The position numbers and the translations under genes are program-made. A stretch of DNA of 64,000 nt from Chiloscyllium plagiosum. Its lineage: Eukaryota. This document shows positions 7,058 to 47,941 of this stretch, in pieces (position 1 is the first letter of the stretch; every line of letters begins with the position of its first letter). The stretch covers positions 13,106,145 through 13,170,144 of the forward strand of contig NC_057731.1 in the NCBI RefSeq assembly GCF_004010195.1, written 5' to 3'. The notes beneath the pieces were generated by a model. The model saw only the letters and a program-made list of their open reading frames with translations. It was not told the DNA's origin and ran no database searches.

Positions 7058-7250
7058 GACATCACACGACACCAACAGGTTTATTTGAAATCACAAGCTT
7101 TCAAAGTGCTGCTAGGATCAGCTAATGAACGAGCTAATGTGACTTCTGATCTTGTCCATCCCAGTCCAAGCTGAAAATGTGTTGCTGGAAAAGCGCAGCA
7201 GGTCAAGCAGCATCTTCATCCCAGTCCAACACTGGCACCTCCATATCATC
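7058..7250. mobile_element. Decayed hairpin PLE derivative with a nested 47-bp PLE-end insertion
   Basis: Remnants of the CACACAACACC..CCCAGTCCAACAC family. The insert 7170-7216 is flanked by CATCCCAGTCCAA at 7157-7169 and 7217-7229. Confidence 0.7.
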
Positions 7251-10830: not shown

Positions 10831-11437
10831 CTGGGTTCAAACCTTTGATACACATTTAGTTACTCACCTGGCAGGCAGACCCTTATTTAGTATAAAGGAC
10901 ACAATTTTGTGTCTTGTAGATTAAATGTTGCATAATCTATGTTACCTTCTTATGTTCTACCTTCAGTGAGAACGTGTCAATCGTTATGCATAAATCTGCT
11001 CCACATCACCACGAAAGCAGAAGAGACAGTAAAATCCGGCATAAAAATGATGAATGTGTCAAAGCATCTATGTGGATGTGACATGAGTGATCTGTAGACC
11101 AATCCCTCACAATAGCCACCGGATTGAACTGAATCCTGAGGAATCTCCTTTTTGGGGAATTCCTGATCTACACCCCTTCAATGCTCAGAGAGGACATAGA
11201 CTGTACTGTTTGCCTTGAAATGCATGAACACGCAGGACCTTGGAAACCCGAAGGTCCTGGCACTGTCAATTTCTCCATCTCAGTCTCCATGCAAGTAGTC
11301 AAGTGACGCACTCATCATCTCACTCACAAAATAATGAGGTGAGAAGCGTGTGCTCGCATGAGATAACTCACCCCAAATCAAAACAGAAATGACATTACAA
11401 ACCCAGTTTGTCCCCTTTTTTTTAACTTTCAAGGAAT

Positions 11438-25910: not shown

Positions 25911-26106
25911 GTATCTCCCCTTGATTCCTCCAAAAGCTCATTAAGGCACTTGTCACTGTCTCTGTACAATACATGAATCCAAAAGCCCTTCCTAACTTAC
26001 TCTGATGCTAATCCATCCCAGCTAATCCCTCGCATGCTAATGCTGACATGATGAACTCTCCCTACAAAGACCAGCTCTCACCACCTTTCAACAAGGCCTT
26101 TGTTTT

Positions 26107-26328
26107 CAAAGTTAAAAATCACACAACACCAGGTTATAGTCTAACAGGTTTAATTGGAAGCACACTAGCTTTCGGAGTGACGCTCTTTCATCAGGTGTCT
26201 ATCACCTGATGAAGGAGCAGCGCTCCAAAAGCTAGTGTGCTTCCAATTAAACCTGTTGGACTATAACCTGGTGTTGTGTGATTTTTAACTTTGTACACCC
26301 CAGTCCAACACCGGTATCTCCAAATCAT
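26107..26328. mobile_element. Fold-back (palindromic) PLE-derived mini-element, family A
   Basis: ~90-bp inverted arms around GTCTAT, each with CTGATGA..GAAAGCTA or a variant. Flanks TGTTTTCAA and TATTTTCAA are TSD-like. Confidence 0.85.
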
Positions 26329-26419
26329 TATTTTCAAGAACTTCTTTTGATAATTGCACCACGATCATGGTCTTTAAATGTAAATTCCTGCAGAAGAGTT
26401 TATGATCAGTTGGGCAATG

Positions 26420-26985
26420 TGAAAGTCATAGAGTTGTACAGCACAGAAACAGATCCTTCGGTCCAACTTTTCCATGCCAACCAGGTACCCCAACCCAACC
26501 TAGTCTCACCTGCCAGCACTTGGCCCATATCCCTCCAAACCCTTCCTATTCATATACCCATCCAGATGCCTTTTAAATGTTGTAATTGTACCAGCCCCCA
26601 CCACTTCCTCTAGAAGAAAAATGTGCCAAGCAAGCTAAGATAAAAGGTAGGGAGGAGGGACTTGGGGGAGGGGCATTGGAATTGCGATAGGTGGAAGGAG
26701 GTTAAGGTGAGCTTTTCCAGCAACACATTTTCAGCTCCACCACTTCCTCTGACAGCTCATTCCATACACGCACCACCCTTTGTGTGAAAAATTGCCCTTT
26801 AGATCTGTTTTATATCTTTCCCCTCTCACCCTAAACCTATGCCCTCGAGTTCTGGACTCCCTCACCCAAGATTTTGTATATTTATCCTATCCATGCCCCT
26901 CATGATTTTATAAACCTCTATAAGGTCACCCTCAGCCTCTGAAGCTTCAGGGAAAACAGTCCCAGCCTGTTCAGCCTCTCCCTAT
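26420..26985 (-). mobile_element. CR1 3' fragment with a nested PLE-end insertion (26612-26736)
   Basis: Reverse complement of the CR1 tail at 27720-28130. The insert is flanked by CCACCACTTCCTCT at 26598-26611 and 26737-26750. Confidence 0.85.
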
Positions 26986-27184
26986 TCAGTGGAGATCAGT
27001 GATTGGTGAGCTATCAATTCCAGCTTATTTGTTTCCTCAGCATCAGTCCAGAAACACAGCCTGGTAAATGAAACAAATCACTATTGTATTGCTTTCTGGC
27101 TTCTGCCAGTATAGGCAAATGAGCAAAGGAGTGGTGGGTGAACTGGACTTGTAACCTGTAATGGCACAGGCACCAGAAAGTTGA

Positions 27185-28130
27185 AAGATTTCCTGGTTAT
27201 GGAGGTTGGCCAGTTATGGACAGTGAAGAAAGTGGGATCTTGATCAGATGGAAAATGTGGTGCTGGAAAAACACAGCAGGCCAGGCAGCATCCGAGGAGC
27301 AGGAGAATCTCCCTCTTGATCAGATGGGCCAATGGGCCAAGGAGTGGCAGATGAAATTTAATTTAGATAAATGTGAGGTGCTGCATTTTGGGAAAGCAAA
27401 TCTTAGCAGGACTTATACACTTAATGGTAAGGCCCTGGGGAGTGAAGCTGAACAAAGAGACCTTGGAGTGCAGGTTCGTAGCTCCTTAAAAGTAGAGCCG
27501 CAGGTAGATAGGATAGTGAAGAAGATGTTTGGTATGCTTTCCTTAATTGGTCAAAGCATTGAGTACAGGAGTTGGGGTTGCAGCTGTACAGGACATTGGT
27601 TAGTTCACTTTTGGAATATTGTGTGCAATTCTGGTCTCCCTCCTATCAGAAGGATGTTGTGAAACTTAGAAGGGTTCAGAAAAGATTTACAAAGATGTTG
27701 ACAGAGTTTGAGGATTTGAGCTAAATGTTGAAAGGCTAGGGCTGTTTTCCCTGGAGCATCGGAGGCTGAGGGATGACCTTATAGAGGTTTATAAAATCAT
27801 GAGGGACATAGGTAGGGTAAATAGGGGAGGTCCTTTCCCTGGATTAGTGGAGTCCAGAACTAGAGGTCATAGGTTTAGAATGAGAGGAGAACGATATAAA
27901 AGAGACCTAAGGGGCAACTTTTTCATGCAGAGGGTGGTGTGTGTATGGAATGAGCTGCTAGAGGAAGTGGTGGAGGCTGGTACAATTACAACAGTTAATA
28001 GGAAGGGTTTTGGGGGACATGAGCCAAGTGCTGGCAAATGGGACTAGATTAGTTTAGATATCTGGTCGGCGTGGATAATTTGGACCAAAGAGTCTGTTTC
28101 CGTGCTGTACATCTCTCTGACTCTGTGACT
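27185..28130 (+). mobile_element. CR1 LINE 3' portion with a nested 62-bp PLE-end insertion
   Basis: DQMGQWAKEWQMKFNLDKCEVLHFG..EQRDLGVQV and RTRGH..NFFMQRVV..WNEL. The insert 27252-27313 is flanked by TCTTGATCAGATGG. Confidence 0.9.
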
Positions 28131-28389
28131 CTATTACTGTGCTTTACAGATAACGTAGCCACCGATGAGTGTTTCTGTAGCAGAGCTGCTGAGCCAGACA
28201 TAGAACCAGGCAATATTGTGAAGACCGAAGGAAGTGATCTTGGTCTGACAGAGTGGATATGTGGTCGGAAACTTAGGGTGGAAGGTTCCAGACACTGTAG
28301 CCTTAGGAATGCAGGCAGGACACCGGGAAGATCGAAGGATGTAATTTTGGGATGGTTGTCCATCAGACTGCTACCATTAAGAATGTCTA

Positions 28390-28725
28390 TCAGGTCATAG
28401 TGTCATTCAACATGGATCCAAATCATTTGGTCCATGCTGAACATAAACCCAAACTAAACTAGTCCCACTTGTCTGCTCCAGGCCCATATCCTTCCAAACC
28501 TTTCCCATTCACCTACTCACCTAAGGGTCTTTTTAGGTTGTAACTATGCCCACATCCACCACTTCCTCAGGAAATTCATTACATGTACAAACCATCTTCT
28601 GTGTAAAAACATTGACCTATCATATTTATTTTTCTCTCCGCTCACCTTAACAATATTCCCTCGAGTCTTGAGGTCCCCATCCTAGAAAAAGGACACCTAC
28701 CATTAACTTTATCTATATCTCTCAT
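28390..28725 (-). mobile_element. CR1 3' fragment
   Basis: Similar to the tail at 26420-26985. Confidence 0.65.
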
Positions 28726-30609
28726 CTAGGGATGGGCCGGAATGGGGATTGGCTACTTGGAGAAACCAACCTGCATATTTAAGGCTTTGATCAGGAGTCA
28801 TTCAGAGCACTCCTGGTGTTTTACTGTTGGTGGGCATCCCTGGGGCATTCCAAAGGACTGTCAGTGCTGGCAGAGGCAGTGTAACCCTGCCCTCTACTAC
28901 TGTCCTTCTTGAGTCTCTGCATTCCTCTCATTCCCAGTTGTTCCAAACCTCTGGCTTTAATCCTTGCAGCATTGCTGGCAGTCCCTTCAGCTTCGATCTA
29001 AGCTCTGATATTGCTGCCTAAACCTCAGCATCACTTTGCCAATCCTTCTTTAAGATGCTCCTTAAAAGCTGCCTTTTTTAAAAATTCAAAGTAATGCACC
29101 ATATGCTTCTGGATTCTTTACAGTGATTGATGCTGTTACTGTGAGGTCTTTGTCTCTAACTCCAAATTGTCAATATCAATGAGAAACAAAAATGATCCGG
29201 CCCTAATCCTTCTTCAGCACTGAATTTAATCCTATTCCATTCTGAATAACTTGGCCCTTATCCAGACTCTGCTTTTTATATTTCTTTAAGCAATGTGGCC
29301 TCCACACAGTTATTTATTCTGTATCCTCACACCTTACACTTCATCATGAACGTATGATGTGGAACTTAATGAAAGGCAGTTAGAAGATCCAAGTTTCTGA
29401 CATTTTAAAGCTTCTTTAATGTAACAAACCATCCCAAAAGTCAGAAGCATTACGAAGCAAATTGAACATCAAGCCATTTTGACACAAGAGCATACTTGGC
29501 TAATGAGAGTGGTTTTAAGGAGAATTTTAGAAGAGGAAATGGAGTTGAAGAGAGAGGACAAAGTATTGGGAGGGAATTCCAACACATAGGAATGAGGCTG
29601 CTAAAGATTCAGGCAAAGACTTTCCAATGTTCAGTAAAAGAAAGGCAGCGAGTGAGCTGTGTATCATTGTATCGCCCTGGCATGGGGCAAACTATTCCAT
29701 ACAATCACATGCTTCTCAGTTATACAGCAAGCGATTGTGTAAGTTACTCAACAATTCACGTAGTGAGTGTGACAGAAGTTCTCACCGTTGGCTGGAATCT
29801 ACAGGCTTCCAAAGGGCATCCAGTCTCCATACCTGATGCTGCGGCCCCACACTGTGCTAGTTACCCCATAATATCAGGCACAGAAGAAAAACACAGAAGG
29901 ACTCTCCTTCTCAACTTCACCCCTTGCCTGAGGAGTGCTAACCCTTAAGGTAACCCAGTCGTAGGACTGTGGCAACTGTATTGTTGGCGTTTCTACCTCA
30001 TTTTTCTTTTTAGACTGATTTCATGATCACCTCCTTCTGCACTTCATCATTATTCTCTTCTCATTCTATCTTTCTTGCCTAAAACTGCCCTTCTACATTG
30101 TTCATTTGTCTGTAATTTCCCTGACAATTTAATTGCTTAATTTCTAATACAACTGAAATATTTTCCAGTTCTGATGCACGATCACTGATCTGAAACAATG
30201 TCCTCTCCACAGAACCTGCCAGACCACCTTAGCAACGTTGCCTCTGCTTCTGCGACTTGCTTTTTGAACCCACTGGTTGGTTTAAGGACTATCATTGGAC
30301 AAACGTTGCTCCATGTTGCAACGTGTGTCTCTATTTTAAATCCTTGACTTCCTTACAATTCAAAGTGATCCCTAGAGATCTAATTGAGTCAAAGATTAAA
30401 CACCAAACCTAGAGCCTTCTCTGGGTTTATTTGGCCCATGGGAGATTGTAAACAGTGCTTCAGTGATCTGAAAGGAATGTGGCAACATCCCACCGTGAGG
30501 GAGGATGCTGTTTTACTGCAGAATATCACCATTCTTGGTTTTAACTGGGTCCTGATCTCGGCTTCATGTTAGCCCCTTGCAGCTGGATGTCTCCCTGTTG
30601 GAGGTTTAA

Positions 30610-31050
30610 CGCTGTACAACATGGAAACAGATCTTTCAGTTCAACTCGTCCATGTTGACCAGACATCGTAAACTGATCTGGTGCCATTTGCCAGCATTTG
30701 GTTCATGTCCCTCAAAACCCTTCCTATTCACATACCCATCGAGGTGCCTTTTAAATGTTGGAATTGAACCCATCTCTGCCATCTCCTTTGGCAACTCTTC
30801 TGAAATGTGAACTCTTTTCAAGGTTATTTAATTCCCTAAGTTCCCTAGCTTCCATATCCTTCTCCACAGTAAATACTGATGTGACATATTTGTTTAGTAT
30901 CTCACCCATCTGCTGTGGTTGCACACATCGATAGCCACATTGATTTTTAAGTGGCCCTATTCTCTGCCTAGTTACTGTTTGTCTTTAATGTGTTTATAGA
31001 ATCTCTTTGGAATTCTCCTTGACTCTATTCACCATAGCTATCTCATGTCC
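30610..31050 (-). mobile_element. CR1 fragments
   Basis: ELPKEMAEMGSIPTFKRHLDGYVNRKGFEG matches the CR1 ORF2 terminus. Confidence 0.7.
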
Positions 31051-31369
31051 CGTATCCTGATGGCAGGGCCCACCTTGTTATGTCAGATAACCTTTCCAGC
31101 TATGATCGGCTATTCACAATTCAAATTAATTTCAATATTCATGATCATTTCAGTGGTGATGGTTATTTATATGGCAACAAAGCCTAGCCCTGTGTGTCAG
31201 TGGAAAAATATATTTAAGTGAAACGAGAAATAGTTAAAGGTAGAATATACTCCTTATAACTGGCCTGCATCTGTTAAAAGTGAGGTACATTCTGATGCCA
31301 GAAATCTCTCTGAGAGGATAGGGAAGAGGAAGTGGCACAAAAGGGCAGATTGTGTACTCAATACTGGAG

Positions 31370-32660
31370 CATTGCTTCAGGCTGTGCAGAGGACGAAAGA
31401 GGTCCTGTTTTTACAGAGGGCTGGGAGGCTCCCCAGACAGACACACAGACAGATTAACTCATTGGATGTAAATAGCCCAAGCAGTCAATGGTAGCAAGGA
31501 CAGGGACATGGAGGTCCTGGTCAAGAGGAGAGGAGTCCTCTTCTTGGAGAATCAGCAGAGGAGGCCATGACACCAGCTCCTGCCAAACTGGTTGGAATTA
31601 ACTGGGTCAGTGCCATCTTGATGGTCTGAAGGGACAGCCAGCAGTGTTATAAACAGGTTAATGACATTCTCCGCACTGTCAGGGTAAGCAGCATACTTTT
31701 CTCGCTGTCACCTTACAGTCATTCTGTCTTGTTATTGCACTCACCTCACACATCCCCACCATTCTCACTGTTGCATGTAACATCTTCCCTCACTTGCTCT
31801 CCCTTCAACCTCCCACACCACTAACAGTGCATGCCCTTTGGACTGTCTCCACAGTGCTCTGTTACATCTCACCACCTTTCCCTACGTGCACCAGAATGAA
31901 CAGATTTACCATGCACTATCATCTCACTTGTTTTCCTCCTGTTTCTCATTCCAGGGAGACACAGGGCAGACAGAGCTTGTATGGGTGACGAGTGCCAACA
32001 GCTGTGTCCTCACCCCCAACAAAGGGAAAACCATGGCCCTCGCAGGACAAGGGAGGGACTGCTCCTGTGAGGAACATACAACTCTCAATACCTGAGTAAA
32101 TGCCTCTCTGTGTACCACTGCCTCTCTCCTATTGACCCTGCTGTCATCCTCAATCAGTCCATACCACTTCTAACTACTGGTCACGACACCCTCTCTCTCA
32201 CTTCTGTCTTGCCGGTTCTGCAAGGTTCCTGACAATGTCTCTAGAGAAGCAGCCAGCTGTGGGTGAACCCCCTGCTCCTAGATTTCCTTGGCTGAGAGTT
32301 TGGAGGCCTCAGAGGAAGCATCATTAGCAAGGCTGCCCCATCAGCTCAGACACTGAGACCTGTAGATGGAATGTGAGGGTACTCAAGCTGGTGAGCACCT
32401 CACAGTGACAGCCCTGCAGCTGGCCAAGGGGGAAACGGTCCAGACCACTGGTACTCGGAGGGCTCAGGCAGGAGGGACCAGTGGTGTCAGCGATCAGGGA
32501 TTGTGTTCTAATGTACAGGGAGGGTCAGGAACAGCAGGCAGCTATCTGGGAGGCACTGGCTGTCATTGCCCAGAAACTACAGCTGTGCTGCAACATTAGA
32601 GTTTGTCTGGCTGTCTCGATGGACAAATTGGCAGTTACTATGGATACTAGGTCCAGTATC
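31370..32660 (+). mobile_element. Decayed Harbinger-type Myb/SANT-like (NAIF1-like) gene relic
   Basis: DMEVLV-KRRGVLF...RRP..LPNWLE..SAI..RDSQQCYKQVNDILRTVR, with stops and a frameshift, followed by a GTAAG donor at 31684. This resembles the trihelix W..(R)..QCRKR.NDL motif. Confidence 0.5.
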
Positions 32661-32794
32661 CTCNNNNNNNNNNNNNNNNNNNNNNNNNNNNNNNNNNNNN
32701 NNNNNNNNNNNNNNNNNNNNNNNNNNNNNNNNNNNNNNNNNNNNNNNNNNNNNNNNNNNNNNNNNNNNNNNNNNNNNNNNNNNNNNNNNNNNNN

Positions 32795-33648
32795 CACATA
32801 CTCTCTTTCTCTCACACACACGCACACTTTCTCTCTCACACACATACATACANNNNNNNNNNNNNNNNNNNNNNNNNNNNNNNNNNNNNNNNNNNNNNNN
32901 NNNNNNNNNNNNNNNNNNNNNNNNNNNNNNNNNNNNNNNNNNNNNNNNNNNNNNNNNNNNNNNNNNNNNNNNNNNNNNNNNNNNNNNNNNNNNNNNNNNN
33001 NNNNNNNNNNNNNNNNNNNNNNNNNNNNNNNNNNNNNNNNNNNNNNNNNNNNNNNNNNNNNNNNNNNNNNNNNNNNNNNNNNNNNNNNNNNNNNNNNNNN
33101 NNNNNNNNNNNNNNNNNNNNNNNNNNNNNNNNNNNNNNNNNNNNNNNNNNNNNNNNNNNNNNNNNNNNNNNNNNNNNNNNNNNNNNNNNNNNNNNNNNNN
33201 NNNNNNNNNNNNNNNNNNNNNNNNNNNNNNNNNNNNNNNNNNNNNNNNNNNNNNNNNNNNNNNNNNNNNNNNNNNNNNNNNNNNNNNNNNNNNNNNNNNN
33301 NNNNNNNNNNNNNNNNNNNNNNNNNNNNNNNNNNNNNNNNNNNNNNNNNNNNNNNNNNNNNNNNNNNNNNNNNNNNNNNNNNNNNNNNNNNNNNNNNNNN
33401 NNNNNNNNNNNNNNNNNNNNNNNNNNNNNNNNNNNNNNNNNNNNNNNNNNNNNNNNNNNNNNNNNNNNNNNNNNNNNNTCACATACACACACTCTCTTTC
33501 TCACACACACTCTCACACACACTCTCTCACACACACACTCTCTCTCACACATACACACTCTCTCTCACACATACACACTCTCTCACACACATACACTCTC
33601 TCTCTCTCACACACACACACATTCTCTCTCACACGCACACACACAAAC
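32795..33648 (+). repeat. (CA/CT)n compound microsatellite bordering assembly gaps 32664-32794 and 32853-33478
   Basis: Direct inspection. Confidence 0.95.
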
Positions 33649-35027
33649 ACCTCCTCAGGACTGAAGGCATGGTGACAGGGGCATGGGGTCCTTGAGCCCC
33701 ACTCCTGTGCCATCCATCCTCACAAAGAGACATGGCAATGCCAGGAGGCACCCAGCTAGCGATGGACCACACACAGATCTTTCGCCAGTTTCCACTTGGG
33801 GCACTCCACTTCCACTCTACCTGACACTTTCTCCCCCCCCCATGGGCATTCAAGGAGAGGAGGGGCAGCTTGCCTCTAGCAAGAGGACACCTGGTGTGTG
33901 TGGGACATCTAGATACAAGACATCTCCACACCCCACCCGCGTCAGCCCTCCAAACCTTCAAGGCCAAGGTGTTTCACATCAGAGCAGACTGCCTCAACCC
34001 AGGAAGTGAACTGAGGTTTGGTGGGAGGGAGAGAATATAGCAAGCTCATTGAGGGCAAAATGGAGGCACGGGGGAAGAACACTTTGGTGTAAACAAAAAT
34101 GTGCACAGGAATGTTGATGACATTAATTTGCATGGATCTGCTTTTGAATATGTTTGCGTAGGCACTGAATCTCTCTAATGCTTGTTTCGATCTGTGTGTG
34201 AATGTAAGCTGATAGACATTTGTTCAGCAGTGGCTATGCCAGGGAGGGGCCCCGCACAGAGAGAGTCAGTGCTGTAACATAGAGTCAACAATCTGCCGTG
34301 CCTGCCAACCTAATTCCCTAATCTCTCCCTCACCAACACTCTAACTTTGTTTAATTTTAACTGATTGACTTTGTTAAATTTTCAGAAAACAGTTTCATAC
34401 TGAGCCACAACATTCCCAAACTCAACTTGAAATTCTCCAAATTACAACCAATCTATGCACAGATCCTTAAATCTGATGTTATTAATTAACTCTGTTTACT
34501 AGATCTAAAATAGCCTGTTCCTAGTAGTTTGAAAATACATTCTTACAGAAAACTACTTCAACTGTATTAGATAAATGCAAACCAATCCTGCTAACTTGTT
34601 TTGCCTAGTCTCACTGAAGGTTAAAGTCCCCTATCATTATTCTACTACCCTGATTACATGCTACTCTCACTTGTTCTGCTCAACACTACCATTCCTAATG
34701 GGGACCCATAAACCAAGATTTCTTGGCCTTTGTCATTATCTTCACCTGTAATGAATCTACTTCCAGATTTTCAGGTCAAGCTCCTTTCCCACTGCTGTCT
34801 TTATTTCAGCTTTTATGATCAGCATTCCCCTTTTATGATCAGCATTCCCCTCAACCGTTGCTAGGTAAAAGCATGTATCTCCATTTTAGCCATTCATTTA
34901 CCTACCTTGTTAGGCATGTCTTGTACATTCAGGGATAGTGCCTATAACTTTATTTTTCCGATAATTTTCTGTGATTGGGCATTAATCATTAATAATTGCT
35001 CTTTACTTTGGTTAAGCTCACTTCATT

Positions 35028-35140
35028 CTGGTGGTGCAGTGGTAGTGTCCTTACCTACAAGCCAGGAGACCTGGGTTCAAGTCCCACCTGTTCCAGAGGT
35101 GTGTAATAACATCTCTAAGCAAGTCAATTAAAAAAAAATT
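35028..35140 (+). mobile_element. Short tRNA-derived SINE
   Basis: GGTGGTGCAGTGGTAG (A box), GGTTCAAGTCC (B box) and an A-tail. Confidence 0.65.
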
Positions 35141-36829
35141 AAAACTCTTTCACAGCTGGCTAGATTTGATCCAAATTAATACTCTCTTCATCAGCATTGA
35201 CACTTGTCTTTAGGTTTGTAAAGGTATCCTTACTTCAGCCCTCCCCATCATGTGCCCTATTTTTTTTAAAGCTCTGAACATCACACCCAACTACTGGATT
35301 TGGGCCGATAATGCTGGAACCAATCTGCCAGAATATCTCCCTCTTTTGCCTGAAGAGATCCCATTAACTCCAGGCTTTTAATCTTTCATGCTACATGAAT
35401 GTTGCTGCCAAGAGCAGCTCTTGTTGCCCATCTCTAATTACTCTTGAGTTGGGTGGGTCATCAGCCCCGTCAGAGGGACACGAGGAGTCCCCACTTTGCT
35501 GTGTCTCTGGAGTCAGGAGAGGACCAGCAGATTTCAGGAGGAGCGAACCCAATTGGGGTTTATGATAATTGGTGATAGTTGTTATTGTCACTATTACTGA
35601 GATGCTTTCTATTCCAGATTTATGAATTTAATTTAAAGTCTGTGAATCCATGTTGAAGGGAAACATCTGTGGATTCCTAGTCTAGTGACACTTCTACCAC
35701 TTCCTGTCCTTTGTATTGAAGCACCAGCCCCCCATATCACTCTCACAGTCATGTATTTAACCCTCGACTCTTGATTCCTGACTGTGACTCAGATATCATG
35801 CAGAGGATGCTATTTTTTAAGGTTTTGCTTTCAAATTTGGATTCCAGCTCCTCAAGCTACCTCATTCGAGATTACTTTTTAAATATGTCAATGTCATTAC
35901 GAGACCAATGATTACATTTCCCTCCTCATTGACCAACTTCCTCTCCAGTCACAAGTCCCTAAGTCTGACAATGCTAGGTAATATGCTGACAGATGATTGG
36001 CTGGCAGATCCCTGCAGAGAACTACAAACAGTCTCCAAAGAAGAGGAGGTTCCAGACTAAAGGCAAATATAGGCTATGGTGGGATCTGGATGACCGGTGA
36101 TCCTCAAAGGAGGTATGGCCACCCCTTACCTGATACCAGCTTTTGCAGCTAAACAAGTGGGATCAAGCCATGAAGTGACCAGTTAAAAGCCTCAGTAGGC
36201 CCAAGTATAGGCACACCATCCAATTCCTCTGGCATTGTTCATCAAATAAGAGACAGGTTAGGCACAGGATGAGTTTGCTGTATTGTAAGGGCTGCACGGA
36301 GCTTCATACCCAACAGCAAGGAACTGTCAAGTTCTGCCCTTCCTTCCAAATGTGCACTCTCCTAATGGGTGTCGAATGTTCTCATATTAATCTTAATGTA
36401 ATTAAGCTACATCCTTGAGTTTCAATTGAATTGAATTGAATTTATTGTCACGTGTGAGCAAAACAGGCAGATCACAGATTTAAGGAGCATAGATAGTAAA
36501 TAATAGGTAAACAACAGTAAAAACAAAAACACAGGCACAGGCAAAGGTTAAGAGTTTGTGAGTCCATTCAGTATTCTAACAACAGAGTGGGCAGCTTCAC
36601 CCCCATTTCCAGGCTCGGCCTAAACTCACCCCCATTGAATTCTAGTGTGTCTGGATCACAGCGAGTTAAACAGATATCCAAATATAGATGGCCTGTTGTC
36701 ATCACTGATTAACATTTCAATTCGGTAAACATGGAGCAGCTTGTGCAAGAAGCAGCAAAATCTTTTCTATAGACACTGGCACTGGAAATCAGTGAGAAAA
36801 ATAAATAACAAAAATGCTGCAGAAACTCA

Positions 36830-37050
36830 GCAACCATTTAGGACTGAGATGAGGAGAAATGTATTCACCTAGAGAATTGTGAGTGTGGAATTCATTGTCA
36901 CAGAATGCACTTGAGGGCAAAACATTGAGGGTTTTTAAAAAGGCATTTGGATATGGTTCTTAGGGCTAAAGGGATCAAACGGTGTGGGATGAAAGCAGGA
37001 ACAGGGTACTGAGTTGGACAATCAACTGGCCTTCTCCTGCTCTTATTTTC
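36830..37050 (+). mobile_element. CR1 3' fragment
   Basis: AGGAGAAATGTATTCACCTAGAGA..TGGAATTCATTG..GGGATCAA, the CR1 tail pattern. Confidence 0.65.
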
Positions 37051-38181
37051 TTTATCATTGTAAATAAGCTTTAATGAGAACATAGCATAGATTTCACCTG
37101 GGAAACCCATTATCCAAATTGCTGTAAACAATATTAAATATTGCAGTGCCAAAATATGAGACAAAAATATGCCCACGATCTGAGTGGGCTAAGAACACAG
37201 ATGCTAAGGTGGACAGATTTGCTAATAAAACATTTAATTAAACCTAGACTTTATCTTCTCTAGCCTGGTAACTGAACCTCAGCATGTCACATTTGCCAAG
37301 TAGTCCCAATTGTCCCTTATGTTGTTATTTACTTATTTTTAGAAGTCTATATAAATTTACACCTAAATGAGTTCAGCGGCTGTGTTAAAATATCAAAATA
37401 ATATTCAGGCTTTTTGACGGTGGGAGCCTCCTATGTTCAACATCGTTCTGCTTCTTTCAGGTTTTCCCATGTAACATGGGTCTGCGATATTGCTGGTTGT
37501 TATCAACTGCATTCTATCAATAATAGCAGAACGAGAATGGATTTGATAACAGGATGATGCTGTACATTGTGATGGAGCAGGACAGCATCAGGGCTATGCA
37601 AGAGACTATGGGGAAAGGACAGAATAATCTGTATGAGTGAGATGTGATTGCAGAGAGCAGTAACATGTACAAAAGTGTAAATAAAAAAGTCAGCAGAGTC
37701 AGGTTAGAGTTATTCATAGGGAGAGGGAACCAATTTAGAACATCGCTCTTCTCAAATATCTTTTCAAAATAAACAAGGCAGAAGAATTTAAAAATCACCG
37801 ACTTTCTTTAGCAATCTTGTTGCTCCGGCCACAATTCCCAAACTATTAATTTCAATGAAAAGCTGCATTCACAATAGTTCCTCCGACAGCACCTTCCAAA
37901 CTCACCAATCTCTACCATCTAGAAAGACAAGGATGCAAGGGAACACCACCTACTGCAAGTGCTCCTCTCGACCGCTCATTATTCTTTCTTGGACCTACAT
38001 TCTGTTTGCTTCATTGTTGTTGTCAAAATCTTGGAATACCCTTCCTAAGAGCACAGAAGGTGTACCTACAGCACATGGACTGTCCCAGTTCAAGAAGACA
38101 GCTCACCACCATCACCTTCTCATTGGTCATTCAAAATGGGCTGTAACCTTTGCCTTAGTCAGTGATGCCCAGATCCCATGA

Positions 38182-38589
38182 AATGGAGATGCCAGTGTTG
38201 GACTGGGGTGTACAAAGTTAAAAATCACACAACACCAGGTTATAGTGCAACAGGTTTAATTGGAAGCACTAGCTTTTGGAGCGCTGCTCCTTCATCAGGC
38301 AGTTGTACCACAACTACCTGATGAAGGAGCAATGCTCGAAAGCTAGTGCTTCCAATTAAACCTGTTGCAATGGAGATGCCGGTGTTGGACTGGGGTGTAC
38401 AAAGTTAAAAATCACACAACACCAGGTTATAGTGCAACAGGTTTAATTGGAAGCACTAGCTTTCGAGCGTTGCTCCTTCATCAGGTAGTTGTGGTACAAC
38501 TGCCTGATGAAGGAGCAGCGCTCCAAAAGCTAGTGCTTCCAATTAAACCTGTTGGACTATAACCTGGTGCTGTGTGATTTTTAACTTTG
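38182..38589. mobile_element. Dimeric fold-back PLE mini-element (family A) with four hammerhead-like cores
   Basis: Two hairpin units (38182-38367 and 38368-38589) sit between a single TSD, CAGATCCCATGA, at 38170-38181 and 38590-38601. Confidence 0.9.
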
Positions 38590-38689
38590 CAGATCCCATG
38601 AGGACATTTTAAAAATCCAAACTGGTTCATATGCCTTGTGTTGAAGTTCAAATTTGCTCTTTATTTACACCAGTTTTAATAAAAACAAT

Positions 38690-39260
38690 TAAGATGTCAA
38701 ATTTATAAGACACTTGTTACACCACAGCTGGAGTGATTGTGTACAATTCTGGGCATCACATTATTAAGAAGGAGAGGAACACAGTGCAGAAAGTGCAGAA
38801 GCAGCTTACTAGAGTGGTAATAAATCTCAACTATGAATTAGATTGAAAGTGCTGTGGCTGTTTTCTTTGGAATGAAGAACGCTATGACCCGATTTGGTAG
38901 AGGTTTTCAAAACCATGAGCAGCCTAGACAGAGTAGATGGGGAGAAACTGTTCCCACTTGTGAAGGATCAAGAACAAGAGGGCATAGATTTAAATTGATC
39001 TGCTAAAGAAGCAAAGGTGAAGTGAGGAAAAGCTATTTCACTCTGCAAGTAGTTAGGGCCTGAAAGTGTGTTAGAGACATGTTCAACTGAGGCATTCAAG
39101 ATGGCATGAGGTGATTATTTGGATAAAAAATAATGTGTAAGAGAATGGAGGGAGGGTAGATGCAGGAGATTGGCACTGGGTAATGATGCTCAGTTGACAG
39201 ACTGGTGCAAACACAAAGGGCAAAATGGCCTCCTTCTGCAGAGTAACAATTCTGTGATTC
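38690..39260 (+). mobile_element. CR1 3' fragment
   Basis: ATTTATAAGACACTTGTTACACCACAGCTGGAG (YKTLVxPQLE) and a downstream CR1 tail. Confidence 0.75.
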
Positions 39261-39967
39261 TCCAAGATTCTGAGAAATGCAGCACTGCAAACGCAGCACA
39301 ACTTGGTGACTCACTATGTCAGTATACTGCCTGAATAACACTTGCAGCCACACTGTACCGGTATAATTGCCATTGAGAAATTCATGGAGAAAGTGAGAAT
39401 GAGATTGGCCTAATACTGATTATTTGGGATTGTATCCCACATCTGAATTTTCCAAGAGCATGGCTGTAATTCACAACAAGAAGAGTGGTGATTTGTTTTG
39501 ATAGACTTCATGCTCCACTGACCATCTCTGTCTTCAGAAACATTCACCAGTGCAATTTGCCAGTCAGGACGCAATGGGGGGAAAAGTAGAAATTTAAGAA
39601 TGTCTCATAGGCCTCTGTTAATTAAAAAGAGTTACAGATTACTAGGGTCATCCATCTCATTATGTCTTTATCCCCTGCCGAAGTTTCTATTCCCTTGAGT
39701 ATAGAAGATTAAATGGTAAGGTAGTCAAGATGTTTCAAATGATTTAAGAATTTGATGGGGTAAATAGTGAGGGACGGTTGGGAAAATCCTTGACAAATGG
39801 CATAGTCTTCACATTAGAGCAAAGACGTTCAATGGTAATTTCAGAGACAGCACTTCTGCACACAAGTAGCCATGGAAATCTATCTCTGTTTCTCGGTGTC
39901 AATTGAAAGCTTCAAAACTGAGATTATTGGATTATTAGTAATTGTGTAAAGGGATATAAGAGATCTT

Positions 39968-40418
39968 TGAGGAGAAAGTGAGGTCTGAAGATGCTGGAGG
40001 TCAGAGCTGAAAATGTGTTGCTGGAAAAGCGCAGCAGGTCAGGCAGCATCCAGGGAACAGGAGAATCGACGTTTCGGGCATAAGCCCTTCTTCAGGGCAA
40101 CACCTTGTCCCAGAGGTGTTGCCTACTTGCGGAGCGTTTCAGAGAACACCTCTGGGACACCCGGACCAACCAACCCAACCATCCCGATCTTCTTCCCGAC
40201 CTCTCCGCCCCCACCCCAGTCTGACCTATCACCCTCACCTTGACCTCTTTCCACCTATCTCATTTCCGACGCTCCTCCCCCAAGTCCCTCCTCCCTACCT
40301 TTTATCTTAGCCTGCTGGACAAACTTTCCTCATTCCTGAAGAAGGGCTTATGCCCGAAATGTCGATTCTCCTGTTCCCTGGATGACCTGCTGCGCTTTTC
40401 CAGCAACACATTTTCAGC
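39968..40418. mobile_element. PLE-derived element (family B) with inverted hammerhead-bearing termini and an internal GIY-YIG fragment
   Basis: CTGAAGA-A-GGGCTTATGCCC-GAAA(C/T)GTC occurs on both strands (40064-40096 minus, 40332-40367 plus). Internal translation LLAERFREHLWDTR. TSD TATAAGAGATCTT at 39955-39967 and 40419-40431. Confidence 0.88.
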
Positions 40419-42110
40419 TATAAGAGATCTTGTAGTGTAGTGGTAGTGTCCTTATCACTAGGCTAGGAGGCTAGAAAGCCAGTGCAAATGATTTTGAGCA
40501 ATAGATCAGTTCGGGACAAGTTTAAGGGGAATGACCTATTCCTGTTCATACAATTGCCAGCAGTTATTGTTCAACTTGTATTACTTTTAGTATAAATAAC
40601 AATAATAATAATAAATGTCATTAGTTCTACAGATATTCAGTTATACCTGCTTCAAGCACTCAAGAACAATAACTGAATATTGTTCTCCCAGTTTATATTT
40701 TAAAACATTCCATCGTCCAAGTGAAGCTCCTCTTCCCTGACCCATCCACTGCCACCTTTCTTGCTAAAATGGTTACTTCATATCTCTCAAATTGTCATGA
40801 AGCCTGACGTTACTCTTTCAACTGATAGTGCTCCAAATGAGCCCATCCTCGTCCCTTCGCTCCTCTGAATGTCACTCATAAATAAGGTGGCAACCCACAG
40901 CATTGTATCTATTCTTTATTGAATTACACCATCAATAAGAACTGTCCCTGATTAACTGGTTCTAAGATCACCATCTTTGGTGTGTTCTGGAGTGGGGAGG
41001 GAATCATGGCTGAGCTTTCTGACCAAGCTGGCTACCTCCTCCTCTTCCTCAGAAAGCACACATTCAAGGTGTATTCCCATTTCTCTTCATTCATTCACAG
41101 CATGTGGGCAATGCCAACATTTATTGCCCAAACAGATTTGCCCTTGAGATGGTGGTAGTCTCCTCACTGCTAACGAAAGCAGCATTGATTCACAAGAAGC
41201 TTAGAAAAATAAGAATTGCATAAAGCTTCATTCAGGTTCCTTGTGGCACTGGAGGAAGAAGAGCATTCGGGCCTGCACTACTGTCACACACCACAAACGT
41301 ACGTGGCTGCACCCATCTCACATCCACACTGCCGGCTGCTTTACCCTGCCTCGGGCTGGTTTTTGGCTTCCACCGATTGGTCACAGCATCACTCACACCA
41401 GTTTCAGTCAGAGCTGAACTACAGAGAAGCCCCTCCTCCCCTTCACCCTGGTCTCATTCCAGCATTGCGTGAAAACAACTTTTCTAATCGAAACCTGTCA
41501 GAAGCTTGTACACTTCTATGAAAAAGCTCCTCAATCTCCTTTGATCCAAGTAAAATTACCCCAACTTCTTCAGCCTCACAGCAACTGAATTACTCCAGTC
41601 AAAGTTTATTGCCTAAATTCTAAAGACAACATTGTGGAATGGACTGCAAAAGATCAGGATCAAGGTCCTTTGCCCCGCTGTCACACTGAGGAGTTTATCC
41701 AGGATTTCTCTTGCACGTCCTATCATAGGTCTCATATTATAAACTGGACTCCATTTTCTAATCAATCTCCAGATGGAGAGATATTGGATGGTCCTTGTTT
41801 CAGATCAAGTTCCTAAACTCAGGTTGTTAGCTCTGGTTGGAGGCATTGATCATGTGACAGTCTGATCACATGTCACCTGACCATTTGATGAATCCCATCT
41901 GATCGTATGGCACAAGTTGCCAGAACTTCTTTCATGTTTCTAGGCCTACACAATGAGTCCCTGTTTGTCAGGAGATAAAGGCCCTCTCAACAAGGCATCA
42001 TTCAAGAGGTCAATAGCAGGAGAGTGGTGCCACACTCCTGAATATGATGCTGCAGAAGATTAATGATGTATCAAAGGCAGGAAAAATGAATGGCATGGGA
42101 TATTCAACCA

Positions 42111-42311
42111 AGCTAAAAATCACACAACACCAGGTTATAGCCCAACAGATTTAATTGGAAGCACAAGCTTTCGAGCGCTGCTCCTTCATTAGGTAGTTGT
42201 ACCAGTGTTCCGAAATATAGTGCTTCCAATTAAATCTGTTGGACTATAACCTGGTGTTGTGTGATTTTTAACTTTGTACACCCCAGTCCAACGCCGGCGT
42301 TTCCAAATCAT
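42111..42311. mobile_element. Fold-back PLE mini-element, family A (internally deleted)
   Basis: Inverted arms; TSD GATATTCAACCA at 42099-42110 and 42312-42323. Confidence 0.85.
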
Positions 42312-43189
42312 GATATTCAACCACATTTTGATGTAGAATCTCAAGTCACCTCACAGTGCCTGTCGAATCCTTCACTGTTGCAGAGAGTCATCAAACAAAC
42401 ACATCTTGCAGGTCACCCTATCTCACTCTGTCTGGGCATTCATTCACAGCACCATCTGATCACCCATCATTGACACTGATCATCATCATAATCCACACAA
42501 CTCTCCTTGAATGTTCTCCTTGTAAGCCTCCATGAATGTTCTCCATCCATCCTTTCAGTCCATTCATTTCACTAACTCAGAAAGCCTCTGTTTCCACTCT
42601 TGCAGGAGAAGAGATCGGAGAACACACAGCAGAGCAGAGAACCAGAGCTGATCTTGCCACCATCTGCACACTGACATTCATGGAGAGAGAAATGTGGAAG
42701 TGGAGTCAAGTCACTTTGTGCCTGGCCATTGGACGTAGAGATCTGCTGCTGTCTTAGTGATAAAATAAAATGTCAGACAGCGACATGGTTGACAACACTC
42801 ACTCTTGTTGAAATGATGGTAGCAGCCATTGAAATAGGATAACATTGTAGCACAGAAGGAGGTCAATCAGTCTTTCAAGTCTTGTCAGATATCTGGGCAG
42901 GAATCCAGTCAGTCCTTTACCCCTGCCACGATTTTAAAATGTTTACTTCCTTCGAGTGTCCTTCCAATTTCTTTTCAAAATTGTTCAGGATTTTTCCTTT
43001 CATCATTGTCATAGGAAACAGGTCATAGGTCATTACTGCTACCCATGTAAAAATAGTGTACCTCTTCATTGCATCTCTCACCCAAAATGGTAAATCTCTG
43101 CCCCTCCCCCAACCCCGCTACCTTCCTCTGTACCATTACATGGGAAGAACTTATCCTTGTCTACCGTATTGAAACCTGCCAAAAACTTG

Positions 43190-44074
43190 TGGAATGGACT
43201 GCAAAAGATCAGGATGAAGGCTCTTCGCCATTAACATGAAGGGAACGACTGGGGGAGAATATTCTGGAAGTGTCCACCCACTTATTGCCCAGGACTGGTT
43301 GAGGTATCCATGGTCTGGTGGATGGGTGGTGATGCTCCAGGCCAGTCCCAAGGATTGAGCAGCTTAGAGATGCTGAGATCAATTTATCATGGGAGAGCTA
43401 CTGAAGTAGCTCACATCAATGGATTCCAACGAAGGGTCTGAGGAATATGGTAAACAGGTAAAATGGAGATTCGTCAAGCAGTTTGTGCTTGTTGTGTGTT
43501 TCTATGTGAGTGAACATAATTGGAACAATAGGCACCTATAACATTATGCACACCCAGGTTCTAGCACCTCTCTCCCTGGAGATAAACTGGGCTGGTTGTT
43601 TTGGTTGAACGGTCTCAGCTGCTAGTTTCACAGTCAGGGAAGAAAGCACATTGAGCGCAGTTCTCTCTCAACTCACTGCTGGACGTTTTGGTGGAGCACG
43701 AACTTGCCATTTGATCAGCATAATGAGGTAAAGAAATTATTGAAATTCTACCTGTTTTAGACAGGTAAATTTGTAGGTTATTGAAAAAGGAGCTCATTTT
43801 CAGAATTATTTTGCTATAAATGACAAAGGAACTAATACACTTAAAGCAGGATTACTTGTCACAGTGAGGCATACAGGTAAATGTTTACTGTTGCACTGGA
43901 ACTAGTGAGTGTCAGAAGAAATAAGAGTCAAAAGGCAATTTATAGTGTTTTGTCAGGTACTCTTTTAAGGAAAACCAACCTTGAATGTCTGAATGAAAAT
44001 TCAAAAACACACAAATTAAACTTTAATTAATCTCCACACTGTCATAATGTTGAATCAAATATTTTGTAAATGTT
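43190..44074 (+). repeat. Direct duplicate of ~56997-57900 (promoter, exon 1 and intron start of IFIT copies C and D)
   Basis: Colinear shared blocks: GCAAAAGATCAGGAT, GGAATATGGTAAACAGGTAAAATGGAGATT, TTGCCATTTGATCA.CATAATGAGGTAAA and CTGTCATAATGTTGA. A further block at 41490-41680 matches 56860-57040. Confidence 0.9.
43723..43727 (+). CDS. IFIT5-like: IFIT copy C probable exon 1 coding part (ATG AG)
   Basis: ataATGAG|GTAAAG is conserved with copy D. Phase 2 fits the acceptor ending at 51802, giving MSATQKDALK. Confidence 0.65.
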
Positions 44075-44187
44075 GAGAGAAAGTGAGGACTGCAGATGCT
44101 GGAGATCAGAATCGAGAGTGTAGTGCTGGAAAAGCACAGCAGGTCAGGCAGCATCCAATTCTCCCATTTTTCCAGCACCACATCTTG
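44075..44187. mobile_element. Family B PLE-end micro-insertion with a partial inversion
   Basis: GAGAAAGTGAGGACTGCAGATGCTGG... TSD ATT(T/C)TGTAAATGTT at 44061-44074 and 44188-44201. Absent from the paralogous intron of copy D. Confidence 0.8.
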
Positions 44188-44304
44188 ATTCTGTAAATGT
44201 TCTCAAACAGATGTGATGAAACATGACTATCTGGAGTGATAAACTTACATAAAACTGTGAATTGTGGCTCCTCCTGATGAATGAACTTAATCTCATTCAG
44301 GACT

Positions 44305-44519
44305 AAGAATAACACAACGCTAGGTTATAGTCCAACAGACTTATTTGGAAGCACTAGCTTTCTAAGCACTGCTCCTTCAGCAGATGGTTTAATCACAACC
44401 ACCCGATGAAGGAGCAGCGTTTGGAAAGTGAGTGCTTCCAAAAAACCTGTTGGACTATAACCTGGCGTTGTGTGATTTTTAACTTTATCCACTCTGGTCC
44501 AACACCGGCTCCTCCAAAA
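44305..44519. mobile_element. Fold-back PLE mini-element, family A (older)
   Basis: Inverted arms; TSD CATTCAGGACT at 44294-44304 and 44520-44530. Confidence 0.85.
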
Positions 44520-45004
44520 CATTCAGGACTGTAATTCCCAGGATAACAGAAAACACATAACATTGCAGAATGTAACTGGCTATCTCTGATGTGAATTTGG
44601 TTGCAGTGGTCACTGAGCTGGTAAGGAGAAGGTGGGATTAAAAACTTGCTGCAGTCACTCCTGCGAGGTACCATCGCTCCAGAGCAGCTTAATCCTGCTC
44701 TCTGCTCCAGTAACTGTTCAATCTCCATGTCTCCCCTTCTCTATTCATTAATAGGCGTCATAAATAGTCATAAATATTATTCAGATGCAAAACAAATTTA
44801 CCTTTAAAATACAATTTGAGTTATTCCTAATTTTATTATCCTAATATTGTGTGTCTGTTGGTGTTTGAAGTTACTAACAATTAAATAAAAAGATAGACCT
44901 ATATATAACATGTTTCACAACCTCAGAAAAGCCCAATGCATTTTGCAATCAGCAAAGCGGCTTTAAAGTGTAGTCACTGTTGTATTTTAAGAGGTAATTA
45001 TAAA

Positions 45005-45322
45005 ATGCTGCCTCACAACACCAGGGACCCAGGTTTGATTCCAGCCTCAGACAACTGTCTGTGCGGAGTTTACATGTTCTCCCCGTGTCTGCATGAGTTT
45101 CCTCTGGGTGCTCCGGTTTCCTCCCACAGTCCAAAGATGTGCAGGTTAGGTGGATTAGCCATGCTAAATTGTCCATAGAGTCTAGGGATATGCAGGTTAG
45201 GTGGAGTAGCTGTGGGAAATGCAGGGTTACTGGGATAGAGTAGATCTGGGAGGGCTGGTGTTCAGAGGGTTGGCGTGGATCTGATGGGCTGAAAGGCCTG
45301 ATTCCACAGTGTAGAGATTCTA
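45005..45322 (+). mobile_element. HE1/V-SINE-like SINE, 5'-clipped
   Basis: B box GGTTTGATTCC, V-SINE-like core and GATTCTATG tail. Confidence 0.85.
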
Positions 45323-47411
45323 TGAAGCACACATGATTTGCACATGCCAAGTTACACAATCTGTTTTGGCGATGTCTGCAAAGGGCTTACATATCAGCCG
45401 GGGCAATGTGAAGATCTCCCTTGTTCTTCCAACAGCACCATCGGAAACCTCACACCCACCTAAGAGGCCAGAGTGAGCCTTATTTGAATATCTCACTCAA
45501 ATGCTGATGTCCCTACCGTGAGACACCTCCCTCAGCATCGGCAGTGCCAACCTCAGTCACAAGGCCAGTTGTGTGGAGTGGGGATTGAACCCGCAATTTG
45601 CCGACTTAGACTTAACAAATGCATGAGGTATGATAATGGCTAAGACCAGCTGGAAAAAGTTTGAAAATATTGCTCTGAAGTATCAGGGTGAACACAAATA
45701 AAGAGTGTTTTTCCCAAATTATAATGAGCAGGAGGCCACCAGAGTAAACAAAAAGCCTTAATATGGGTGCACAGTCAGCTGGGACACTGAAAAACACAAC
45801 ATCTGACTTTGTTTTCTGGGCCTCTGGGATGTTTGGCCAAAGGATCTCATCGCAGGCTCTCTGAGCTAGCATTGCAGAGACTAATACTTCATAGTTTTAA
45901 CAAAAAACGCACAGAATTTCATACTGCACACTGCGCCTTAACCTTAGTACAGTGCAGGAAAAGCAAACTCATTTACCCGCAGGAAAAGCCAGGTGTAGTC
46001 GTTTGAAGTGAAAGGCAAAGGCTGGAAATTCACCAGGAACTGGTTGGGAATTACAGAAAGGATGGGGGCGGGGTGGAATTGGAAGAGAATGGCCACAGGC
46101 ACATGGGGTAGATGGAGCAGAGAAAGAGCTGGGCTGGCTGAAGGATGAAGGATTGGACAGCAAGAAAGCATGAAAAAATTTGCATTGAACTAACACCTCA
46201 TCACATCTTGTAGGAATGTCCCCTCTACCATTCCGGTGAAATTATTTATTTTGAAATACATTCATTGTAGATTTGAGGGGAAATATGATAACTCAGTTGT
46301 GTGACAATAACTTGCATTTATGTAGCACCTTCTGATATGATGTGGTTCTCTCTATGTTAGTGCTTGTAACACATACTGCAGAGAGTTGTATTGTTTTTGA
46401 AATAAATATAATTGGAGTTTATTAACAAATAACAATGAACATAATATGATACTTTAAACTTGCATACGCAGTCTGGGTTATATGCCCACTTAGATTGTTG
46501 CTATATTCCATATATTGTTGACTTTCTGATTCTCAGAATAACCAGCAGAATGGCTGGTAGTTTAGCTATCAGACTAACTGTATGACTGGACAGAGAATAA
46601 AATATAGACCGCTGTGTTATCAAGCTGCTTTAAAGATATACCATTTTTCTTAATTTAGTGTATTACAGCGGCACAGGAATGTAATCAGACAAAAACTGAG
46701 GCAAGAACTGATACAAAGAAAAAGAAGGAACTGCTTAGAGGGTGAAAATAAGTTGAATAGAATGGGTAATTTTTAAGGAGAGGTTGTCTTGAATTCTGAG
46801 ATTTTGGAACTCTCGGGGCTGAACCCAACAGTGGGTGAGAGGGGGATGGACACAAAGCCAGAGATTGGTGAATGCAGAGCCCCCAGCGAATTCTAGGGCT
46901 GAAGGAGATCACAGAGACAGGCAAGGGTGAGATCATGAAGGGACTTGAACACCAGGGTGACATTATTCCTTCTGTGATATTTGCGAACTGGAGCCAATGG
47001 AAGTCAGAAAGACCAAACGTAATGGATGATGGAGGAGAGGAACTTATGCATGTCACAGAACTTTGTGAAATGCAGCAGATTGAGAAACTGGCTGGGAAGT
47101 CGTTTAGGTAATTGAGTCTAATGTGTGAGGGGTTCAGTAGAAGATGGGCTGCTGCACTTGCAGACAAGGTGATGCTAGAGGGATAGATCTAGATGGTCTT
47201 TGTGATGGCGAGGATCTGATGCTGCTTAACTTACAAAGGTGTTCAAAGGTAGCAACACAATGAATGGCCACCAGCTGTTTTCGGTGGTGTAGCTCAGGGA
47301 AAGGAAGATTGTTGGAAAGTGCAACTTTTTCTTTTGCTTCAAATAATGCCCTAGAAACCTTAACTTCATCTGAATCACCAGAACAGCTCAAGTCTGCCTT
47401 GCTGAAGAATG

Positions 47412-47635
47412 ATTTGGAGATGCCGCTGTTGGACTGGGGTGTACAAAGTTAAAAATCACACAACACCAGGTTATAGTCCAACAGGTTTAATTGGAAGCAC
47501 ACTAGCTTTCGGAGGGACGCTCATTCATCAGGTGATAGTCCGGCTATCACCTGATGAAGGAGCGTCGCTCTGAAAGCTAGTGCGCTTCCAATTAAACCTG
47601 TTGGACTATAACCTGGTGTTGTGTGATTTTTAACT
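47412..47635. mobile_element. Fold-back PLE mini-element, family A (near-perfect ~95-bp stem)
   Basis: Arms at 47444-47538 and 47544-47638; TSD TTGCTGAAGAATG at 47399-47411 and 47636-47648. Confidence 0.9.
47548..47582 (+). ncRNA. Minimal hammerhead ribozyme motif (family A)
   Basis: CAC-CTGATGA-A-GGAGC GTC GCTCT-GAAA-G-CTA-GTG: stem I CAC/GTG, stem II, palindromic AGCT stem III and a CUA cleavage triplet. Confidence 0.65.
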
Positions 47636-47941
47636 TTGCTGAAGAATGCGCACTGGATGATATTCATCCAGATTAGAATAAGTTTACTAAATGTAGGGCA
47701 GGATTTTATGCAGTTCTTTGGACTCTACACACTCCTCATTCTCACAAAAAGTGTCAAAGGGAGTCCACTCCAGATACAGGCAGCTGCTGCCCTTCATTAA
47801 TATTTCTGGGAACAGCAGAAATTGCTTTCAAAAAAGACTTTCTCACATATCTCAGGAGTAAGGCCCTGCCTTCGAGAGCAACTGGCCATTTTTGTCAGGC
47901 AGCAGCTCTGTTGTCCCAGCAGCACCAAGGTTGGGACTGCA

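Follow-up and report, generated by a model that had tools for sequence, protein, structure and literature searches.

The present analysis concerns a family of short palindromic elements in a 64-kb stretch of vertebrate DNA with N gaps from Chiloscyllium plagiosum (contig NC_057731.1, positions 13,106,145 to 13,170,144; hereafter the window). Patterns detected at five loci and one relic make it probable that each locus is a pair of stubs, placed head to head between target-site duplications (TSDs) and derived from the hammerhead-bearing end of an element resembling Penelope-like elements (PLEs), and that such pairs are made anew at each insertion rather than copied as hairpins. The pairs would best be read as two separately primed cDNAs that ran off a fixed 5′ end of the RNA. 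The family is non-coding, PLE-derived and dependent on an autonomous PLE; an autonomous element is the likely source of the enzyme, with the hammerhead motif a passenger. An earlier note on this DNA, made from the sequence alone, had proposed non-autonomous elements of this kind, which our results support, and had also taken them for an under-described system, whereas they are likely a known kind of insertion product, a miniature PLE insertion unit, whose architecture is already described in the excerpts by which the papers cited here are represented (PMC8557442, PMC3846280, PMC4209133).

Structure of the hairpin loci

Exact inverted 20-mer pairs less than 300 bp apart numbered 186 over the whole window and all its repeat families and 0 in each of 20 base-shuffled controls, and copy 47412 (loci are named by their starts) folded with z = -24.5, so that the inverted repeats are beyond chance. 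BLAST of the window placed copies of the family only at the six loci below, a set that was not hand-picked and that arms shorter than about 25 nt would escape; it returned no coding parent of the family in the window. Positions in arms are counted from the first C of the core, CTGATGA.

26107..26328, plus strand: hairpin with inverted arm 26107-26197, centre 26198-26202, direct arm 26203-26293 and tail 26294-26328; TSD 7 bp, 26103-26109 / 26331-26337, exact (9 bp with one mismatch by eye); arm ends at -3 and -7, with different loop-II variants (GTC and AGC) in the two arms; inverted repeat 26102-26298, 96 nt, 92%
38182..38589, minus strand: 408-bp double hairpin with two tails, a complete unit 38370-38589 and a partial second unit 38182-38369; TSD 12 bp, 38170-38181 / 38590-38601; inverted repeat 38204-38598, 166 nt, 96%
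42111..42311, plus strand: asymmetric hairpin with tail 42277-42311; inverted arm extends to 8-12 nt before a decayed core, CTAATGA, at 42186-42192 (minus); tailed arm begins inside stem II at about +12 and is without core; TSD 12 bp, 42099-42110 / 42312-42323; inverted repeat 42107-42277, 67 nt, 91%
44305..44519, plus strand: older, decayed hairpin with tail 44486-44519; cores CTGCTGA at 44377-44383 (minus) and CCGATGA at 44403-44409; TSD 11 bp, 44294-44304 / 44520-44530; inverted repeat 44304-44481, 49+42 nt, 82-86%
47412..47635, minus strand: young hairpin with tail 47412-47443, tailed arm 47444-47539, private 4-nt centre 47540-47543 and inverted arm 47544-47635; cores 47525-47531 (minus) and 47551-47557 (plus); TSD 13 bp, 47399-47411 / 47636-47648; inverted repeat 47444-47638, 95 nt, 96%
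7048..7246, plus strand: relic of a related subfamily with inverted arm to about +10 and a remnant direct arm; TSD 7 bp, 7041-7047 / 7247-7253

TSDs were exact at all five loci and varied in length from 7 to 13 bp. The arms, about 70-95 bp long, share an end 88 nt past the core C, and in each hairpin only one of them is extended by a tail of 32-35 nt. Twelve arms at the five loci aligned as a single family with two main variants, and the centre letters differed among copies. The earlier description of five TSD-bounded loci built from inverted repeats, one arm extended by a fixed terminus, a loop differing between copies and no coding parent in the window therefore stands. Its size of about 220 bp holds except at 38182, where the double hairpin lies within one TSD. 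A relic had been reported at 7058 and does have its TSD, but its outer arm differs from that of the five loci, its second arm is strongly unequal, and its tail is split by a foreign arm from a second PLE family (family 2, below) at 7169-7214, with a 12-bp TSD of its own.

The TSD starts with CAT, the last letters of the tail, at three of the five loci (38170-38181, 44294-44304 and 47399-47411), with near-matches in the other two, which suggests primer pairing or a cut-site preference.

Hammerhead motif and arm ends

Near the centre of the hairpins lies a putative minimal type I hammerhead motif, for which copy 47412 provides an example:

47495..47539, minus strand: minimal type I hammerhead motif, predicted cut between 47503 and 47502

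The motif comprises a short helix I (CAC/GUG), CUGAUGA, a single unpaired A, helix II, GAAA and a palindromic AGCU. In its letters it shares with the minimal hammerhead ribozymes (min-HHRs) of PLEs the unpaired base after A9, G10.1-C11.1 and palindromic letters in the role of helix III, and the helix II letters differ yet pair in three PLE families of the window. Rfam scored no hammerhead family in the window, returning only sub-threshold microRNA and snoRNA look-alikes; the microRNA-precursor matches lay at 47487-47595 and 38342-38528. The core had been said to occur on each strand, and exact CTGATGA is indeed found on both strands at three of the five loci (26107, 38182 and 47412), but 44305 has CCGATGA and CTGCTGA and 42111 a single CTAATGA. 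GAAA has become AAAA in 3 of 11 listed cores, and most cores are decayed, the plausibly intact ones being those of 47412 (plus) and of the two ‘Y’ arms of 38182. Opposite-strand cores, about 10-20 bp apart, are an automatic outcome of the palindrome. Within the full hairpin RNA the predicted pairing probability of stem II did not exceed 2.5e-4 in any of the 11 cores. The two-polarity ribozyme element of the earlier note, and likewise a viroid- or delta-like rod RNA with a ribozyme in each polarity, is accordingly rejected for a plain inverted repeat with mostly decayed cores and a stem II that the folding model almost never forms. An open reading frame (ORF) starting in the core was also considered and rejected, the ATG of CTGATGA meeting an in-frame stop after 8 codons.

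Nine of 12 arms terminate at -3 to -8 before CUGAUGA and retain the uncut motif, when one unit of 38182 is counted and the two relic arms are entered as misses; the range reaches -13 if the centre letters are parental. Nine of 12 ends within 11 of 101 positions has P ~3e-5 against a uniform distribution after window scanning, so that fold-back points are non-random relative to the ribozyme. They had been placed always a few bases 5′ of CTGATGA, and this is true of four loci in five, but the tailed arm of 42111 begins near +12. The predicted cut lies at +29, about 35 nt from the fold-back point. Cleavage appears not to set that point, because a cut RNA would lose the core and yet the arms keep it.

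Contig survey

Words of copy 47412 occur in sequencing runs of four organisms. Its tail, arm and centre (47409-47546) were aligned to contigs of three DNA runs from three organisms, giving 61,166, 63,291 and 106,964 aligned contigs (about 231,000 in total), which are contig counts and not copy numbers; with six loci per 64 kb they indicate a very abundant family. Heterogeneous flanks (agreement ~0.35) join at 47410/47411, the tail end, and at 47445/47447, the arm end, in all three runs, and these two junction points are about 35 bp apart. Summed depth of 31,000-127,000 at 47534-47538 falls to 5.85, 4.44 and 0 at 47544-47546, beyond the centre. Since the bin at the opposite end keeps a depth of 160,000-857,000, edge loss alone does not explain this drop, and the collapse past the centre argues that the centre of 47412 is private and not part of a replicated unit. 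There were 73 contigs (X13) that run on past 47539 (position -8) with a non-palindromic consensus, showing a linear parent. The motif that lies upstream in this parent does not occur in the window at up to 3 mismatches.

Among 15 listed of 25 joints, 9 are opposite-strand joints inside the arm; at least 3 of these 15 can be only unequal head-to-head joints (+35/-10, +31/-3 and +72/0), and at least 3 link the tail end to the start of the inverted arm. Several joints genome-wide fall between +30 and +33, close to the predicted cleavage site.

Hundreds of contigs diverge within the tail before 47427 (X2, X13) with a differing consensus, indicating a second tail variant of the hairpin family. A single RNA run gave 0 aligned reads, which is no test of expression either way. 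Neither other copies nor a parent were found in a viral contig collection (0). Metagenomes gave 0 and then 68 matches to a 19-mer, prokaryote genomes 2, and none of the 70 loci fetched aligned over more than 30 nt.

Comparison of arms and the double hairpin

Across loci, arm role is not marked by any variant; the sole apparent case, +82, lies inside the TSD of 44305. The two arms of a locus differ at 5, 5, 7, 12 and 3 sites, much as arms of different loci do (2-16). At the 2-nt loop-II variant one arm of 26107 has the state of both 47412 arms and the other that of the remaining loci, a discordance that points to two templates. The arms of 38182 and of 42111 are discordant at the same 1-nt indel; indel and centre are in opposite phase in the two loci, and so these are not copies of a single master.

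At 38182 the segment 38182-38369 reproduces the complete unit forward through the tail and outer arm and then as reverse complement through the inner arms and centre, so that 38204-38369 is the reverse complement of 38433-38598, including the centre and four arm-specific variants. Two CpG-type changes separate the duplicates and six sites separate the arms of the unit itself; the arms had diverged before the duplication took place. The segment shows that a hairpin was copied whole once, most simply in place, and two template switches on pre-existing hairpin DNA would best account for this. An artefact of assembly was considered but is made less likely by the novel junction and by the two CpG sites at which the duplicates differ.

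A second family as control

Another PLE family in the window, family 2, shows what a coding element leaves behind.

9022..10836, minus strand: broken coding PLE of family 2, not the parent of the hairpin family, with reverse transcriptase (RT) remnant, CxxC linker, GIY-YIG remnant, hammerhead at 9145 and tail
39968..40419, strand not assigned: family-2 head-to-head insertion, TSD 13 bp
39968-40419, 47942-48100, 54340-54519, 26615-26737, 44078-44180, 48580-48979, 60213-60330 and 27251-27309: family-2 stubs or unequal head-to-head pairs

In the family-2 parent RVT_1 (E=3e-4) and GIY-YIG (E=0.04) both fall below Pfam curated cut-offs, and the YIG motif is present. At 39968-40419 the tailed arm stops 1 nt before the core, and the partner arm is at least 236 nt longer, reaching the endonuclease-coding end of the parent. 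Short derivatives differ in layout, with TSDs of 10-14 bp in 5 of 7 checked, and their arms start at -236 or beyond, -8, -2, -2, -1, +7, +28, +47 (three) and +55. Family 2 therefore argues that the same layout and hot spot can arise from a long coding template. A 24-nt micro-fold-back was seen at the junction of locus 40005, and an internal inverted piece joined to a short arm at 26615.

Comparison with described elements

In the excerpts, the PLE insertion unit consists of a pseudo-long terminal repeat (pseudo-LTR), an adjoining inverted and 5′-truncated copy, and a one-sided tail of 30-40 bp (PMC8557442, Craig et al. 2021), and PLEs have head-to-head palindromic junctions with TSDs of 8-10 bp (PMC3846280, Arkhipova et al. 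2013). Like such units of endonuclease-bearing (EN+) PLEs, the hairpins have a head-to-head inverted copy that is 5′-truncated, a palindromic junction, a tail (32-35 bp) on one side only, a variable TSD of around 10 bp and a candidate min-HHR motif. Unlike the unit as excerpted, they are reduced to two terminal stubs of about 220 bp with no ORF, arm ends concentrate at -3 to -8, and stubs dominate the family.

For the Poseidon element PAc of the lizard Anolis carolinensis, nicking and extension of both target strands are reported in vitro (PMC11167929, Frangieh et al. 2024). The PAc tail is delimited by two sites of RT initiation, which lie 111-118 nt inside an ORF that begins in the hammerhead, uncut RNA is used, and priming proceeds without homology; the formation of inverted copies is not treated in the excerpted parts of that paper. 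The hairpin family resembles PAc in a hammerhead about 120 nt before an AC-rich RT start region, cleavage predicted some 29 nt downstream of the core C, and a tail that spans the interval between two RT start sites. It differs in that no ORF starts in the core and TSDs often begin with the last tail letters.

Min-HHRs of metazoan PLEs are described as occurring in opposite-strand motif pairs 100-700 bp apart, ascribed to truncated PLEs (PMC4209133, Cervera and de la Pena 2014). The putative motif of the hairpins is like these in its short helix I, its unpaired base after A9, its G10.1-C11.1 and a palindrome where helix III would be, and unlike them in that its opposite-strand cores lie close together inside a perfect hairpin. 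In non-LTR retrozymes the units are repeated in tandem, head to tail, an arrangement that permits cleavage of dimers and the formation of circles (Cervera and de la Pena 2020, PMC7229834; Li et al., bioRxiv 10.64898/2026.07.22.740005). As presented there, retrozymes share with the hairpins a non-coding sequence, a type I hammerhead, derivation from a PLE pseudo-LTR and a vertebrate host, but the hairpins are head to head and would bury the ribozyme. A retrozyme is rejected, as no head-to-tail tandem with complete hammerheads was found at loci that are all head to head, 38182 being an inverted duplicate. The literature listings, which do not extend to Dfam or Repbase, held nothing on the hairpin family, on a fixed stop before a hammerhead or on twin priming by PLEs.

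Proposed mechanism

Following PAc, we infer that the protein nicks the two target strands 7-13 bp apart, the distance recorded in the TSDs, and that each nick primes its own cDNA on the element RNA. One cDNA would start at the tail's end and the other at the tail's start, about 35 nt upstream, which would leave the tail on a single arm. On a template uncut at the ribozyme most cDNAs would extend over only 90-125 nt and end at a limit some 8 nt ahead of CUGAUGA, and some would stop short of it. The clustering of arm ends is plain; its cause could be the 5′ end of a transcript started in an upstream pseudo-LTR, to which we give about an even chance, or alternatively a structural or protein block. 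The two cDNA ends would then be joined through 1-5 extra letters or short microhomology, creating a private centre. The finished hairpin would be a dead end, its RNA predicted to bury the ribozyme, and would decay mainly at CpGs.

Several points weigh against this reading. No autonomous parent with this arm and tail, from which the clade and the 5′ end of the RNA would be read, was found in the window. The CAT at the start of three TSDs is in contrast with the homology-free priming of PAc in vitro. The contig alignment is biased, as symmetric hairpin centres assemble poorly; the joints given are the best-supported ones, beside 483 further loose ends; those at 47498-47501 coincide with a subfamily indel; and the runs may be from species other than that of the window. 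In the clustering probability, arms paired in a single insertion count as independent of each other. Variants shared by both arms of a locus, a 2-nt insertion (26107, 47412), +46 (42111) and +66 (44305), also fit single-template snap-back or arm conversion. Finally, 38182 carries one centre in both orientations, and its centre letters GTTGTACCA are common to 42111, as expected with a hairpin template. The centre of 47412, by comparison, is private in three contig sets, and 42111 is accounted for equally well if its parent had those letters upstream and the joint was made through 2 nt of microhomology.

Alternative explanations

An alternative could be self-priming, in which one cDNA (or antisense RNA) folds back near the end of the template and the enzyme copies the inverted arm. 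This has been proposed for the palindromic junctions of rotifer Penelope, in the excerpt of PMC3846280, and is consistent with subfamily marks common to both arms in 26107, 47412, 42111 and 44305 and with the micro-fold-back at 40005. We regard it as unlikely since arm differences in 26107, 38182 and 42111 recur at other loci, which self-copying would not yield, and since self-priming alone does not account for an inverted arm that ends where the tail starts, which in PAc is the second RT start site.

Slightly less likely again is retroposition of the hairpin as a non-autonomous element in its own right, with a PLE enzyme copying the RNA from inverted arm through centre to arm and tail and the fold-back inherited, as the earlier note had allowed in taking the hairpin RNA for the mobile unit. 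Its centre might vary through flip/flop and imprecise joining, possibly recorded at 38182 and 42111. The mirrored segments of 38182 with centre and arm-specific variants, the letters shared with 42111, the arms discordant at one and the same indel, and the joints of tail end to inverted-arm start, as in tandem hairpins, all favor such copying. Against these, the centre of 47412 is nearly missing among the 231,000 aligned contigs of three assemblies; the opposite phase of indel and centre leaves no single master; no variant is specific to arm role; two DNA template switches and only two CpG changes account for the 38182 duplicate; and family 2 presents a continuum of arm lengths.

It is very improbable that reverse transcription halts and turns back at an RNA end created by hammerhead self-cleavage, a possibility the earlier note had raised. 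The fold-back lies near the ribozyme and several joints at +30 to +33 are near the predicted cut, but these joints fall on a subfamily indel that interrupts alignments in any case, a cut at +29 would remove the core that nine of 12 arms keep, and for PAc, in the excerpt of PMC11167929, uncut RNA is the dominant substrate and ribozyme mutants inserted normally. Least credible of all is a miniature inverted-repeat transposable element moved by a cut-and-paste transposase, which would account for palindromic, TSD-bounded, high-copy elements of about 220 bp but not for TSDs of 7-13 bp, asymmetric ends with a one-sided tail, unequal arms in 42111 and the relic, or a PLE-type hammerhead motif at the centre.

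Neighbouring features

Four IFIT-like TPR genes are clustered around the elements, the ORF at 51783-53255 matching IFIT5 with E=9e-114, and there is one further PLE-like remnant.

3583-4959, plus strand: IFIT-like TPR gene
16625-17719, minus strand: IFIT-like TPR gene
51783-53255, plus strand: IFIT-like TPR gene
61297-62772, plus strand: IFIT-like TPR gene
25138-25843, minus strand: third PLE-like remnant, with hammerhead motif at 25181 (helix II of 6 bp) and, past an N gap, a fragment of an ORF; Pfam gave no match

Implications

As a class of element the hairpins are ordinary, and their use is as a natural experiment on how PLEs form inverted copies, the origin of which is stated to be open in the excerpted text of PMC8557442 and is not settled in that of PMC11167929. 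Abundant arms that mostly stop about 8 nt before the ribozyme, private centres and some discordant arms make the combination of two primers and run-off from an RNA end testable. There are two further consequences for genomes that carry such elements. First is that the hairpins can pass for microRNA precursors, and misannotation as novel microRNAs is possible. Secondly, they can seed local inverted duplications such as that at 38182, here inside the IFIT gene cluster.

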